Sequence record: NC_041869.1
Direction: 5' to 3' (one strand)
DNA from: Escherichia phage APECc02
Length of the DNA: 64,000 nucleotides
Shown: piece after piece, positions 41,771 to 48,427 of the stretch
How the letters are laid out: every line of letters starts with the position of its first letter
How positions within the stretch are numbered: position 1 is the stretch's first letter
The notes under the pieces: generated by a model
Told to the model about the DNA's origin: nothing
Database searches by the model: none
Seen by the model: only the letters and a program-made list of their open reading frames with translations
Translations under genes and position numbers: made by a program

Positions 41771-42325
41771 ATGAAATACTTTGTAACAAGCGACACACAC
41801 TTTCTCCACCAGCGGGTCATGGAGTTCGACTCATGTCAAAAACACAGATCTCAGTATGATCACAATCTTGACAGTATGAATGCGGGAATCATCACCGAGT
41901 GGAACTCTGTTGTGTCACCTGCAGACACTGTGTTCCACCTGGGAGATATTGCGTGCACTAATGATAAGAATATCAACAAATTGCTCCCAGATGTTCTAAA
42001 TATGTTGAACGGACATATTATTCTTGTTCGTGGTAACCATGACACAAGGACGACTGTCAGAATTATGAAAGAGTTCGGTCATGAGGTTGTAGATTATTAC
42101 GAGCTTCGCCACAACAAGAATTTGATCTGTATGAGCCATTACCAGTTTGCAAAGTGGAACAGAAAGCCTCACGGATCAGTCCAACTGTTCGGTCATGCTC
42201 ACGGAACCACACAGCAGTTGTTTGGCAGGCAGTTTGATGTCGGTTGGGATGTGTGGGGGAGACTCTTACCATTAGAAGAGGCATACCGTATTGCAATGAG
42301 TCTTGCTATTGACAGCGGGGAGTAA
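41771..42325 (+). CDS. calcineurin-like metallophosphoesterase
   Basis: DTHF, GD, GNHD motifs; start at MKYFV with GAGGA RBS. Confidence 0.65.
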   Translation: MKYFVTSDTHFLHQRVMEFDSCQKHRSQYDHNLDSMNAGIITEWNSVVSPADTVFHLGDIACTNDKNINKLLPDVLNMLNGHIILVRGNHDTRTTVRIMKEFGHEVVDYYELRHNKNLICMSHYQFAKWNRKPHGSVQLFGHAHGTTQQLFGRQFDVGWDVWGRLLPLEEAYRIAMSLAIDSGE

Positions 42326-42372
42326 TCCCTGCTATTTTAAAGAAAATTGCCACACAAGGAGAATCAGGAGAT

Positions 42373-42723
42373 ATGAAAGATGGGGATAAGCTGCTATATC
42401 TTAAAGTCCCCCTTGAAATACTGTCTATGTCAAAAGTTTTGAATGACACAACTGGGGAGGTTGTTGTTCTTGACTTGTATGACAAGATCGTATACTGCTA
42501 CCTGCACAACTGGTATAAGCTTGGAGGAAGTTCACGCTTCACACCCAGCACAAGGAAAATTGCAGCAGATGTTGGGATAAAGAAAACAAAAGCAGCAGCG
42601 TGCGTTAAAACTTTAGAATGTGCAGGAGTGGTTGAAATATCCACACAAGGGAGAGGTAAAAGATGCACATTTTCCAAAGTTTTGCCACCAGAAGAGGTTA
42701 TTCGAATGTCAACAACTGGTTAG
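42373..42723 (+). CDS. hypothetical protein, possible DNA-binding
   Basis: ORF with AAGGAGAA RBS; immediately upstream of iteron array. Confidence 0.45.
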   Translation: MKDGDKLLYLKVPLEILSMSKVLNDTTGEVVVLDLYDKIVYCYLHNWYKLGGSSRFTPSTRKIAADVGIKKTKAAACVKTLECAGVVEISTQGRGKRCTFSKVLPPEEVIRMSTTG

Positions 42724-42796
42724 ACCAGTAAAAACTTAAATATCTGTACTATAAGGATTCGTATGTTTTATGTTCGCTCTGGAACAGAGGTTAGTA

Positions 42797-42880
42797 ACTG
42801 TCCGTGATACGGACACTACTGTCCGTCACGCGGACACATCTGCCCGTAATACGGACACTAACTGTCCGTGATACGGACAC
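42797..42880. repeat. four tandem ~21-bp iterons, each palindromic (CTGTCCGT-N4-ACGGACAC)
   Basis: copies at 42797, 42818, 42839, 42861. Confidence 0.8.
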
Positions 42881-42884
42881 ATAA

Positions 42885-43015
42885 AGAATATAACTAAAAT
42901 AACTAAATAATAAAAAATAAAAGATCTAGTACTTATGGTACTAAGTACATATACTTAACTTATGTAGAATATACTAGATCCTAAGTACCATGTTTTAAAT
43001 TTATTACTTACTATG
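42885..43015. other. AT-rich tract with short direct/inverted repeats (CTAAGTAC, AGTACT)
   Basis: composition and repeats seen directly. Confidence 0.6.
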
Positions 43016-43020
43016 GGTAG

Positions 43021-43270
43021 TGTCGGCCCTTCATTGGCACTCGCCTACGAGGGGCGAGATGCCGGGCCTCCCTGGTGCACACAATAACAGAAGTGCATAC
43101 ATGCAGGTCTGTTAACATGTGTGGGAGCGAAGCGATAGCGCAGGCCAAAGGCCGAGCACTGATGTGGACCACCGACGAAAGCTTGCCAGCGCCGTAAGGA
43201 GTCGGTTGAGAGTCTCCCGCGCGAGCTTGGATGAAGTTTATGTGTGGAAACGGACAAGAAGGCCCCTAAA
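43021..43270. other. GC-rich ORF-free island with multiple hairpins (candidate structured RNA or acquired fragment)
   Basis: marked GC shift versus flanks; no plus-strand ORF; several GC stems. Confidence 0.35.
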
Positions 43271-43383
43271 TCGCTCCACAGCTATATAAACTATACCAGG
43301 TAAGGCAATCGCACCAGTTTGATAGAAAAGCTCGTTACAAAGCGATACAGTGAGTTTTTCTATAACTTGAAGAGGAGGTAGTT

Positions 43384-43962
43384 ATGAGTCCACGCAAAGA
43401 TGACCGTGAAAAGATTGCAAAACGTTATCAGAATGAAGAACAGATGGAGAAAACTTTCAAGTGGAAGCCAGGTTTCCAGCGTAATCATTCTAACGCTCGT
43501 GATCGTAAGCATCCGGATAAGTGGTTAACACCGCCAAATGATGGCATTCAGGTTGGTGATGAGAAGGAGCTGTCACCTGGAAAAGATGGCAACTACATTC
43601 GAACTAAGGAAGCAGGTCCAAAGGATGACAGCTATCTTGTAGATAAGGTTCTTGACGGTGTTGATGTAGGTGTTGACACTGTACGAAACCTTTTTCTTGG
43701 TTGGTATCGCACAGGGTTTTTCGACATCAAGGCTATTCGTCGTGTTTGTGATATTAAAAAGTCTGCCTACGATGATGATTCCCTACATCGCACTCTGAGA
43801 CAATACTCAGAGAGATACGGTCATCCAGTTATCACTCTTGACGATATTAACGAAGTTATGTATCATGTAGAGGTTGTTGCAGGTAGGTTCGGTGATGCAT
43901 ATCTCGGTATTCTCTCTGCAAAGGATGAGGTAATGTTAAATAAGATTTACTATGAACGCTGA
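43384..43962 (+). CDS. hypothetical protein
   Basis: ORF with GAAGAGGAGG RBS. Confidence 0.55.
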   Translation: MSPRKDDREKIAKRYQNEEQMEKTFKWKPGFQRNHSNARDRKHPDKWLTPPNDGIQVGDEKELSPGKDGNYIRTKEAGPKDDSYLVDKVLDGVDVGVDTVRNLFLGWYRTGFFDIKAIRRVCDIKKSAYDDDSLHRTLRQYSERYGHPVITLDDINEVMYHVEVVAGRFGDAYLGILSAKDEVMLNKIYYER

Positions 43963-44480: not shown

Positions 44481-44767
44481 GGTTGTTTTCGTGTATCATG
44501 ATGAATATCCAATTTAAAGATGAATTTGATGGCTTTATCTCCGGATGCTTTGAAACAGGGTTCGGAGAAGGCTGAGTTACCCTTAGAGGGCTTGATAGTG
44601 CACCACACTTAAAATGGTAGGGGCAGCCAGCACATGACGATGTGACCCCAGCCAACCTGTAATAAGGTCGAGCCAAAGCGCGGTAATGGGCTCTGGTAAC
44701 CCACTTGTTGGGTCTTGCTGGTCCAGGACGCTGGACAAGTCGCAGGGAATACCACCCTGCGGCGAAC

Positions 44768-44796
44768 TTGACAATCAGTATTTGCTATGATAAAAT
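44768..44796 (+). promoter_or_regulatory. sigma70-type promoter (TTGACA-N17-TAAAAT)
   Basis: hexamers read directly. Confidence 0.55.
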
Positions 44797-44824
44797 CCAC
44801 CTATCACGTGATAATGGAGGAAAC

Positions 44825-45259: not shown

Positions 45260-45334
45260 GCCCTGTTAGCTTAGTGGATAAAGCAGCGGCCTTCTAAGCC
45301 GTTGACACTGGTTCGAGTCCAGTACGGGGTGCCA
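45260..45334 (+). tRNA. tRNA-Arg (anticodon TCT), CCA encoded
   Basis: cloverleaf folded by hand: 7-bp acceptor, anticodon loop CTTCTAA, GTTCGAGTC T-loop. Confidence 0.75.
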
Positions 45335-45338
45335 AATT

Positions 45339-45425
45339 GGGGAGTTATCCCGTAGAGGTAGCGGTGTAGACTGTAAATCTATTGTCATTGCGACTCGGGT
45401 GGTTCGACTCCACCACTCCCCACCA
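45339..45425 (+). tRNA. tRNA-Tyr (anticodon GTA), long variable arm
   Basis: anticodon arm AGACTGTAAATCT identical to bacterial tRNA-Tyr; acceptor pairs; CCA encoded. Confidence 0.8.
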
Positions 45426-45539
45426 AATTTACATTTTTAAATGCATAAATCATACAGATAATGGCATTGATATTTATCGTCGTTTATACTAGTCACTAAC
45501 TGCTCGAAAATCAGTGTCATTATCAGTATTGTTTATAAA

Positions 45540-45630
45540 TGAGGGTAGGGAGCAATGGTGCTCAAGCGGTCTTGAAAACCGTCCCGTTGAGGATGACTCG
45601 ATGATGGTTCGATTCCATTACCCTCAGCCA
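45540..45630 (+). tRNA. tRNA-Ser (anticodon TGA), long variable arm
   Basis: anticodon loop CTTGAAA, long variable arm, T-loop TTCGATT; 5' boundary uncertain by 1 nt. Confidence 0.65.
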
Positions 45631-45728
45631 TATTGTTGACCTTGTAATTAAGCGAAAGCCGGAAGCAGAACCGGATTATCAAATGTTACAGTCGTCATCG
45701 CCGACTAGCAACATGGTCAACATACTGA

Positions 45729-45825
45729 GCTAGGTAAGCCCTTTGGCAAGGGCGAGGATTTTTAATCCTGAAAATAGACGAGGTAGTCGTTGAATACATA
45801 GGTGGTTCGATTCCATCACCTAGCA
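45729..45825 (+). ncRNA. atypical tRNA-like element (acceptor and T-arm intact; possible TTT anticodon; ~31-nt variable region)
   Basis: GCTAGGT/ACCTAGC acceptor pairing and GGTTCGATTCC T-arm, but non-canonical middle. Confidence 0.3.
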
Positions 45826-45832
45826 CCTTTTT

Positions 45833-45908
45833 GCTGATGTAGCACAATTGGTAGTGCAATTGATTTGTAATCAATAGGTTGCAGGTTCGAGTCCTGCTAT
45901 CAGCACCA
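45833..45908 (+). tRNA. tRNA-Thr (anticodon TGT), CCA encoded
   Basis: acceptor GCTGATG, D-arm GCAC..GTGC, anticodon loop TTTGTAA. Confidence 0.75.
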
Positions 45909-45909
45909 T

Positions 45910-45984
45910 GGCCCTGTAGCTGGAAGGTTCAAGCAAGCGACTCATAATCGCCAGACGGTGGTTCAATTCCACCCAGGGCCACCA
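45910..45984 (+). tRNA. tRNA-Met or Ile2 (anticodon CAT), CCA encoded
   Basis: acceptor GGCCCTG/CAGGGCC, anticodon loop CTCATAA. Confidence 0.75.
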
Positions 45985-45995
45985 AATAATAAATA

Positions 45996-46072
45996 CTCCG
46001 CGTAGCTCAGCTTGGTAGAGCGCCTGATTTGGGATCAGGAGGTCGAGTGTTCGAATCACTCCGTGGAGACCA
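45996..46072 (+). tRNA. tRNA-Pro (anticodon TGG), CCA encoded
   Basis: canonical D-arm TAGCTCAGCTTGGTAGAGC, anticodon loop TTTGGGA. Confidence 0.75.
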
Positions 46073-47184: not shown

Positions 47185-47618
47185 TGTCTAAGATTTCTAA
47201 GATTTACGGACCGTGTTCTGAAAAGCAGAAGATGATCCTCGAAAACGATGCAGATATTTTGGTAATCGGCGGTGCCGCAGGGTCTGGCAAGTCGTTCCTC
47301 TTGCAGTTGATGCCGCTTAAAATTATTGATGACCCACACAGCTCTGTGGTTATGTTCCGAAGAACAACCCCGCAGTTGGAAGGTGAGGGTGGACTATGGC
47401 CTAAAGCAGTAGCTATTTATAGTGATCTGCCTGAAAACATTAAGCCAAAGTTTAGAGAGAAGGATCATAAGTTCATTTTTCCACGGTTTGATCCGAGCAC
47501 TGGCAAGTGGGATAGAAGCAAAAAGGGAGCTGTTGTAAAATACTGCCACATGGAGTATGTACAAGATAAGCTTAACCATCAGGGGCTTGAGTACACCATG
47601 GTTTGCTTCGATGAGGGT
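47184..47618 (+). CDS. terminase large subunit, exon 1 (ATPase Walker A to Walker B)
   Basis: Walker A VIGGAAGSGKSF; reading frame ends at MVCFDEG then TAA at inferred intron start. Confidence 0.7.
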
Positions 47619-47668
47619 TAATTTGTAGCTCTCGTAAAACCTCCCTAATTGCGGGGAAATCTTTATTA

Positions 47669-47697
47669 TTGACACCACCAACCTGTTATGGTAACAT
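47669..47697 (+). promoter_or_regulatory. sigma70-type promoter inside intron (TTGACA-N17-TAACAT)
   Basis: hexamers read directly, upstream of intron ORF. Confidence 0.45.
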
Positions 47698-47836
47698 AAT
47701 AGAGGCTTCGAAGAGAGATCGAAGGTATGGTAACAGTGTGTTAATTTAGATAATCCGCAGCGAAGCATCCGAGAGGATGAACGTTCAACGACTAGTCGAA
47801 AGACGTAGAATCAAGCGATTCGAAACGGGAGGGTGA

Positions 47837-48427
47837 ATGTGTAATACTAAAAAATGTATGGATTGCCAAAGAGTTCTGCCTATTGATGATTTCTTTTTAT
47901 CATCTAAGAGCAAGGATGGATACTCAGGTACATGCAAGGAATGCTATATGTACTACAGGAAGGGTGGATCTCGTAAAAACAAAAATATGGTTAAGAGAGA
48001 TGACGCAGCATTGTTTATTCAAGACTTGCTGAAGAAAGGTGAACTTTTTGAATGCAAATCTTGTCATGAAAGTATGCTCGCTGATAGTTTTTACACAAAA
48101 CGTGACTATGGTAAAGTATATCTGGTTACGAACAGGTGTAAGATGTGTGAAAAGTTTTATCAGATTGAGAAGAAATTTCACATAACAAAAGATGAATACT
48201 ATCGTCTACTCTCAGATCAAGATCATAAGTGTGCCATTTGTAGAATATCTCTTAATGAGTATAGGACGCAAGGGTACAGAGATTTCTTTTGTGTTGATCA
48301 TGACCATAAAACTGGTGCTGTAAGAGGGTTGCTTTGTGATAAATGCAACAGAGCTTTAGGTTTCTTCCAAGAAGATGAGGAAACTATTCTTAGAGCGGCA
48401 GAGTATTTACACATTCATAAGATATAG
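47837..48427 (+). CDS. Endo VII-like HNH homing endonuclease (intron-encoded)
   Basis: CAICRISL...CVDHDHKTGAVRGLLCDKCNRALGFF matches T4 Endo VII zinc/HNH motif. Confidence 0.7.
   Translation: MCNTKKCMDCQRVLPIDDFFLSSKSKDGYSGTCKECYMYYRKGGSRKNKNMVKRDDAALFIQDLLKKGELFECKSCHESMLADSFYTKRDYGKVYLVTNRCKMCEKFYQIEKKFHITKDEYYRLLSDQDHKCAICRISLNEYRTQGYRDFFCVDHDHKTGAVRGLLCDKCNRALGFFQEDEETILRAAEYLHIHKI

Follow-up and report, generated by a model that had tools for sequence, protein, structure and literature searches.

A probable iteron-type replication origin and the gene for its putative origin-binding protein in rV5-like phages

A 64,000-nucleotide stretch of Escherichia phage APECc02 (NC_041869.1), called the window below, carries at 42,373-43,010 a gene for a 116-amino acid winged-helix protein, four palindromic repeats (iterons) and a tract of extremely AT-rich DNA, in that order. 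From the computational evidence, this locus is probably the vegetative, iteron-type replication origin of the rV5-like phages together with the gene for its origin-binding protein. No description or mapping of an origin for the rV5 group was found in the searchable literature. The origin is favored because of the homology of the protein to an initiator domain, the single cluster of its presumed sites, the slow evolution of an AT-rich tract that is also the melting minimum, and the occurrence of a parallel module in the sister genera. Each of the three parts of the layout that the initial annotation had read as an origin or a multi-operator regulatory site holds up; the later evidence leans to the former, with some probability left to a regulatory role. 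By its sequence identities the stretch is DNA of a Vequintavirus, an rV5-like E. coli myovirus: 1.1 kb around the locus is 99.8% identical to Escherichia phage AlexBoehm and 98-99% identical to rV5, FV3, Murica and about 115 other Vequintavirus records, and across 8.2 kb the window has 96.5% identity to AlexBoehm, which makes it a related phage rather than AlexBoehm itself.

The iteron array (42795-42880), apparent to sequence inspection and repeat finders alike, consists of four head-to-tail units of about 21 nt with cores of the form TGTCCG-N5-CGGACA. The first unit begins 72 bp past the stop codon of the 116-amino acid gene (42723), and successive units start 21, 21 and 22 bp apart, in agreement with the claimed spacing of two helical turns. 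Cores 1 (42799-42815) and 4 (42863-42879) have the same sequence, TGTCCGTGATACGGACA, a perfect palindrome with 7-bp arms, so that the dyad symmetry ascribed to each unit is exact in these two; core 2 (42820-42836; TGTCCGTCACGCGGACA) and core 3 (42841-42857; TGCCCGTAATACGGACA) have one arm mismatch each. The repeat consensus first proposed is one base off in copy 3, where the arm reads TGCCCGT. A clustered regularly interspaced short palindromic repeats (CRISPR) array was rejected, as it had been from the outset, since the units abut, with 4-5 bp between cores and no unique spacers. When the pattern TGTCCGTNANNCGGACA is allowed up to two mismatches, it occurs in the window only at the four core positions; each palindrome counts once per strand, which gives the 8 matches listed, where 0.30 would be expected, and none of 100 shuffled sequences reached 8. 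With 73 kb of AlexBoehm sequence (two further segments) added to stand in for the part of the genome outside the window, making the equivalent of a genome of about 137 kb, the four iterons are the sole matches at one mismatch or fewer. They are proposed to be the sites for dimers of the 116-amino acid protein. Existing annotation of the repeats amounts to one record, as "repeat_region" only. When 596 Gb of prokaryotic genomes was scanned, a 15-base iteron pattern, too weak for the purpose, gave only chance single matches and no arrays.

Abutting the array is the AT-rich tract (42881-43010), the proposed DNA-unwinding element. The initial annotation had described about 130 bp of very AT-rich sequence with short repeats, and indeed the GC content here is 0.19-0.22, against a window mean of 0.43. 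It includes the lowest-GC 130-bp stretch (0.19) of the window and the two further AlexBoehm segments, the runner-up being at 0.246, and the window's least stable 100 bp begin at 42880, with a nearest-neighbor free energy of -102 kcal/mol as compared to a mean of -133 and a standard deviation of 6, a departure of about 5 standard deviations. Within it are A-tracts, two tandem copies of ATAACTAAA (at 42890 and 42899), two copies of CTAAGTAC, the short repeat ATGGTAC / GTACCAT, GATC sites at 42923 and 42977, and an inverted pair of 9-mers, GATCTAGTA at 42923-42931 and TACTAGATC at 42972-42980. The GATC motifs recall oriC and P1 oriR. On the minus strand at 42914-42926 lies GATCTTTTATTTT, the only exact match in the window to GATCTNTTNTTTT, which we take to be the oriC 13-mer consensus of Bramhill and Kornberg 1988. 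The unwinding elements of oriC and RK2 contain 13-mers with a role in those origins (PMC4980987).

The gene ahead of the array (42373-42723, plus strand; gp075 of rV5) had been noted as a possible DNA-binding open reading frame (ORF); it is real, and its product is a winged-helix DNA-binding protein, the proposed origin-binding initiator. Its variable sites are distributed 9/11/39 over the three codon positions, which marks it as a genuine coding gene. A PDB profile search with a 5-sequence profile found 4RO3 at E 2.8e-6, and a 21-member profile including distant relatives improved the match to E 1e-12 (chain residues 4-107; 51.6 bits). The structure is that of the N-terminal domain of RepA from the Vibrio cholerae satellite PLE. 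RepA drives PLE replication from its origin, gel-shift assays show it bound to the semi-palindromic iterons there, and its authors placed it, on structure, in the RepA_N / DnaD N-terminal-domain class (PMC7145576; PMC8263062). In a structure model built from a 21-sequence alignment -- an earlier one from 5 sequences was too poor, with a predicted local distance difference test (pLDDT) score of 45 -- the 116-amino acid protein is predicted to have the 4RO3 fold along its full length, at an identity of only about 27%. The full-length Foldseek matches that follow 4RO3 are staphylococcal RepA_N initiators, one of them a Rep-DNA complex. Among the viral structural neighbors, several are named replication protein or initiator, one is a DUF6945 protein, and another is ORF88 (Odn) of phage ICP1, an origin-directed nuclease with an N-terminal domain that copies PLE RepA (PMC8263062). 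Judged by these profile matches, the 116-amino acid protein is a sequence homolog of a proven initiator's origin-binding domain.

Family searches point in the same direction. The PHROG match is to 12838, "replication initiation protein", and PHROG-based annotation had given the gene that name before; alignments also extend to the N-terminal parts of the larger initiator families phrog_8102, 428 and 270. In a Pfam scan of the single sequence, DUF6945 (24.9 bits, cut-off 28) and HTH_36 (22.8 bits) are both just below cut-off, and the distant relatives P0014, P0017 and P0018 exceed that for DUF6945. Pfam gives no match to the RepA_N model PF06970, even at E up to 1, nor to Phage_rep_O or Rep_3. 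Pfam and NCBIfam matches to repressor families of the MarR, GntR, LexA and CodY types are all below cut-off and cover the helix-turn-helix core only. Annotation is split across records among "putative transcriptional regulator", "replication initiation protein", "DNA-binding protein", "DsrC like protein" and "hypothetical protein". A word-index protein search recovered only relatives of at least 85% identity plus one fragment, the distant ones being reached by exhaustive profile search; a viral-contig scan with the protein alignment gave one locus only, a duplicate of an earlier one.

The window was compared with ten relatives, including the Aya clade, in which the protein is 87% identical. 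Against the Aya clade, 3 of 86 iteron positions differ (3.5%), as do 6-7 of 130 in the AT tract (about 5%), compared to 47-51 of 351 in the gene itself (13-15%), 15 of 71 in the spacer between stop codon and first iteron (21%) and some 31 of 319 in the GC-rich block that follows the AT tract. With all sequences taken together, variation in the region is lowest in the AT tract, at 8 of 130 columns (6%) as opposed to 14-20% in coding sequences. These comparisons indicate purifying selection on the non-coding iterons and AT tract. The right arm, CGGACA, is invariant in all complete copies seen (12 related loci), iteron variation being limited to the central bases and T-to-C changes in the left arm, and a metagenomic relative with a 70%-identical protein and a diverged spacer retains TGTCCGTCACACGGACA, with a second unit starting 21 bp on, after which the contig ends. 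Three independent Logan metagenomic contigs (L011, L012 and L017) all end within or just past the array, which probably reflects branching of the assembly graph where a conserved block meets diverged flanks, not a physical DNA end. In the phage collection the 116-amino acid protein has 117 records, all from Vequintavirus and all with at least 88% identity.

The remaining Vequintavirinae do not have the rV5-type protein. KB57_095 (122 amino acids) of Klebsiella phage KB57, a Mydovirus, is a remote homolog (hhalign probability 90%, E 1.7e-6) that matches the same PHROG initiator families and a DnaD-like family as well. Proteins of its type have 74 records, in Mydovirus, Seunavirus, Certrevirus and other genera, and none in Vequintavirus, a distribution complementary to that of the rV5 type. 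The intergenic region flanking KB57_095 (L145, 21906-22110) contains TATTCC-N6-GGAATA three times, two of the copies in tandem at 24 bp, and nowhere else in the 143-kb KB57 genome; the last copy is followed immediately by 100 bp whose GC content, 0.20, is the minimum found for the genome and which contain three GATC sites spread over no more than 40 bp, as well as a one-mismatch 13-mer. Phages CR3, W70 and Kashira (L147-L149) likewise have a KB57_095-type gene adjoining repeats, here TTATTC...CATAA elements, and an AT tract in which GC is 0.09-0.17 and GATC occurs two to six times. KB57_101, which is syntenic with the rep gene, and KB57_096 were tried as counterparts and rejected, neither being homologous; KB57_095 lies across the intergenic region. 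Comparison of the sequences thus indicates that a three-part module -- a small initiator-like winged-helix protein, palindromic repeats close by and an extreme AT tract that bears GATC sites -- is conserved across the subfamily, with the repeat sequence changing along with the protein, and these sister-genus loci would be equivalent candidate origins.

More distant homologs, of 146-217 amino acids and from contigs of up to about 80 kb with phage genes, keep the domain and add a tail. In most of the distant homologs whose C-termini were read (P0010, P0014, P0016-P0018, P0024, P0025, P0028-P0031), the tail is acidic and ends in P-F, P-Y or N-F (e.g. DDMVLPF, LDEIPY, DPDAPF); the rV5 protein has no tail. 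Bacterial SSB has a C-terminal tip to which proteins of replication and repair dock; the acidic tails resemble it, so a recruiting role would fit this family better than that of a repressor. One homolog, P0013, has a GIY-YIG nuclease domain fused to the same DNA-binding domain, which recalls ICP1 Odn with the domain order reversed. Contigs that encode 176-193-amino acid homologs contain, 3-4 times each, the palindrome GCCGCTNAGCGGC, with a CCG-N5-CGG core like that of the rV5 iteron (L014, 4153-4479; L016, 3905-4487; L143, 2117-2443). All copies are in the large intergenic region that precedes the gene, where short GC hairpins are numerous; one clade lacks the palindrome, which is suggestive only.

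A possible course of events at the locus can be put together from these parts. A sigma-70-type promoter on the plus strand at 42309-42338 (TTGACA, 18 nt, TG-TATTTT), with 10 of 12 consensus matches plus an extended -10, lies upstream of the 116-amino acid gene; the rV5 RefSeq regulatory feature (promoter P76; L006, 1437-1466) maps onto it. Host RNA polymerase would make the protein early from this promoter, and its dimers would, by homology with PLE RepA and pSK41 Rep, bind the four semi-palindromic iterons, all on one face of the DNA because these sit two helical turns apart. The nucleoprotein complex could then bend and strain the DNA and so open the adjoining AT tract with its GATC and 13-mer-like motifs. 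Since no terminator-like site was found after the gene, read-through into the repeats is plausible, and such transcription from the rep promoter may aid opening, as at the lambda origin. Finally, the phage T7-type primase-helicase, perhaps along with a PIF1/Dda-like helicase, might load on the opened strands; genes for a T7-type primase-helicase and a PIF1-like helicase are present in the genome (PMC3606486; AlexBoehm record).

One of the closest parallels is PLE, where the N-terminal domain of RepA is a homolog of the 116-amino acid protein in both sequence and predicted structure, and where RepA, thought to be dimeric, binds semi-palindromic direct repeats in a non-coding origin region (PMC7145576; PMC8263062) to which the rV5 iterons may be likened. 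Both systems involve a phage with its own replisome and an SF1B-type (superfamily 1B) helicase (gp237 in rV5; PMC3606486). PLE RepA, however, has a C-terminal domain that the 116-amino acid protein does not, its iterons number three and are of about 30 bp, as against four units of 21-22 bp and different sequence here, and PLE is a helper-dependent satellite, whereas the present module lies within the lytic phage itself. In the RepA_N initiators of plasmids pSK41 and pTZ2162 (4PQL, 4PT7, 4PTA, 5KBJ), an N-terminal winged helix of about 120 residues binds four Rep boxes (PMC5703833), and the pSK41 boxes follow the DNA that encodes this domain, just as the iterons here follow the gene; the pSK41 origin is inside the rep gene, while the rV5 gene ends before the origin, and the RepA_N plasmids have Gram-positive hosts (Firmicutes), unlike rV5. 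Lambda has the same layout of four imperfect inverted-repeat iterons, bound by O dimers, then an AT-rich unwinding tract, in a transcribed region (PMC7466680), but O belongs to an unrelated protein family, recruits P-DnaB through its C-terminal domain and contains the origin inside its gene, and lambda uses the host replisome where rV5 encodes its own. Iteron plasmids and oriC (RK2, P1, F; PMC4980987) share the placement of iterons beside an AT-rich unwinding element with 13-mer-type repeats; their unwinding elements have three or four exact 13-mers compared to one here, and, unlike RK2, F, P1 and pPS10, the rV5 locus has neither a Rep_3 initiator nor a convincing IHF site or DnaA box. In this sense the system is of a classical kind; what is unusual is the minimal form of the proposed initiator and the position of the candidate origin after the gene rather than inside it.

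Several observations weigh against an origin at this site. There is no convincing match to a DnaA box or IHF site in 42700-43400, the only DnaA-box-like site having one mismatch and lying about 230 bp past the AT tract. The protein stops at residue 116, directly after the winged-helix domain, and has no counterpart of the C-terminal domain of pSK41 Rep (319 residues), which is essential and binds DnaG (PMC5703833); a bare DNA-binding domain is also what a repressor would look like. Skew analysis in the rV5 genome paper failed to locate an origin (PMC3606486), the skew within the window follows transcription, and the primase-helicase and polymerase genes are about 65 kb away (AlexBoehm genome record). 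In the sister genera the repeats are within a divergent promoter region with sigma-70-like promoters, so that their module does not by itself separate origin from operator, and the palindromes near the distant homologs are dispersed, 130-230 bp apart, not tandem.

A first alternative is an operator array, in which dimers of the 116-amino acid protein, acting as a transcriptional regulator, block or modulate transcription from its own promoter into the non-coding block and the 192-amino acid gene downstream, the AT tract being incidental or a phage-specific promoter region. We regard this as rather unlikely, if clearly the most serious of the alternatives. Many records do label the protein a putative transcriptional regulator, it is a bare winged-helix domain with weak helix-turn-helix matches to LexA, CodY, TrmB and MarR, the absence of a predicted terminator between gene and repeats would let a roadblock work, and between the divergent promoters of the sister genera an operator role is equally natural. 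The regulator matches, however, span only a 60-80-residue helix-turn-helix core, whereas that to PLE RepA covers the whole domain with far better scores. Neither a sigma-70-like promoter nor a terminator was found within 42724-43383, so there is no promoter of this type overlapping the iterons, or in the 660 bp after the gene, for them to control, which argues for origin over operator; and an operator leaves unexplained a melting minimum that is conserved beyond the coding sequences and bears GATC and 13-mer motifs in several genera. Since autoregulation is common among initiators, an origin would be compatible with some regulatory effect.

The other two explanations seem far less probable. 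That the locus serves some different DNA transaction -- as a pac site with a small-terminase-like protein, a partition or anchoring site, or a decoy in a conflict with satellites that imitate the specificity of the initiator -- is very unlikely. The terminase genes do lie about 4 kb downstream, and some pac sites, such as P1 pac, have repeated protein-binding sites with GATC motifs; the protein family also includes nuclease fusions, the origin-targeting ICP1 Odn (PMC8263062) and the GIY-YIG fusion described above. The fold and sequence, though, match the N-terminal domains of initiators, not small terminases or ParB/ParR, neither packaging nor partition needs the least stable DNA of the genome alongside, and a search of 5,426 complete E. 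coli genomes turned up no copy that might come from a satellite. A role at the RNA level, with four tandem hairpins of 7-bp stem in the 3' untranslated region of the rep transcript stabilizing the message or binding a protein, is the least credible of all: each unit can be folded as a short hairpin and transcription probably reads through, no terminator being predicted, but the T-to-C variants of the left arm would produce C-A mismatches in plus-strand RNA opposite an invariant right arm, the 21/21/22-bp phasing and the conserved bases between hairpins suit a DNA-binding array, and a putative dimeric DNA-binding protein, presumably the cognate one, is encoded alongside.

If the locus is an origin, the small size of its protein calls for comment. 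A tentative idea, which we hold with more doubt than conviction, is that the Vequintavirinae use a minimal initiator consisting of the DNA-binding domain only of the RepA_N/PLE-RepA type. Either four phased dimers on the weakest duplex would suffice for the T7-type primase-helicase to load itself, perhaps helped by the SF1B helicase, or recruitment has become the task of a different gene, located past the origin. For the latter, the candidate is the gene for a 192-amino acid protein (43384-43962, plus strand), downstream of the GC-rich block. It is as genus-restricted as the 116-amino acid protein, with 118 records in the phage collection versus 117, and has no Pfam family, no PDB relative and no significant NCBIfam match, its sole PHROG match being to a family of unknown function. 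Its placement recalls pSK41 Rep, whose C-terminal domain is encoded past the in-gene origin (PMC5703833); this is an analogy only, and a functional partnership with the initiator is speculative.

Between the AT tract and the 192-amino acid gene is a conserved, GC-rich (0.53-0.59) non-coding block at 43011-43383, on the plus strand. Small ORFs annotated there in some records show variation of 9/11/9 and 5/6/5 over the codon positions, with no bias. RNA folding compared to shuffled sequence gives z scores of -2.9 for the plus strand and -2.4 for the minus strand, only one compensatory pair was seen among 8 sequences, and an Rfam scan of 40-48 kb found nothing at the locus, its matches being tRNAs and a sub-threshold group I intron elsewhere. 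rV5 does not have the 18 nt at 43081-43098. The block may belong to the origin, or it may be a structured RNA or a leader. At 44500-44800 lies another GC-rich intergenic block (GC up to 0.56), which has no sequence similarity to the first and ends in a sigma-70-like TTGACA...TATGAT just ahead of a gene starting at about 44825.

The rV5-like phages have been widely isolated and are candidates for biocontrol and therapy against pathogenic E. coli, and the locus offers a precise candidate origin, of about 300 bp plus one small protein. The protein family links PLE RepA, the only characterized RepA_N-like initiator from Gram-negative bacteria, with small proteins of lytic enterobacterial myoviruses, and so bears on the source of satellite initiators and on initiation without helicase or primase activity in the initiator. 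Should the minimal-initiator idea be true, PLE RepA would be a descendant of a widespread family of lytic-phage initiators, and the rV5 locus could serve as a very small model of replication initiation by RepA_N-type proteins. The split annotation of the 116-amino acid gene could also be settled, and the spurious small ORFs across the iterons and the GC-rich block removed.

A few further observations concern related records and neighboring genes. A plasmid sharing the origin was considered and rejected, as the single "plasmid" match, the circular 137,565-bp pRHB39-C03_2 (CP057073.1) of an E. coli isolate from cattle, is a whole rV5-like phage genome. It is 98.3% identical at the locus and is either a carrier-state episome or co-cultured phage DNA. 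Eighteen GenBank "Campylobacter phage" records (MG0656xx; host Campylobacter jejuni) are about 98% identical here to rV5-like phages of E. coli, and their host label looks doubtful. The genes neighboring the locus include a Sir2-like gene, RNA ligase, polynucleotide kinase, phosphoesterase, a tRNA cluster, a spanin gene and terminase. The tRNA cluster (45260-46072) includes a 99-nt tRNA-like gene (45729-45827) to which ARAGORN assigns a four-base anticodon and which is variously annotated as tRNA-OTHER or tRNA-Lys. In the terminase region, a group I intron model scores 42.2 bits at 47609-47908, short of its gathering score of 50 bits, and some records annotate a short "putative large terminase subunit" ORF before the main terminase gene, which together suggests an intron-split terminase. 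Outside the window, the DNA polymerase gene of AlexBoehm (L021, 12453-16072) is annotated as two joined pieces with a homing endonuclease gene inside.

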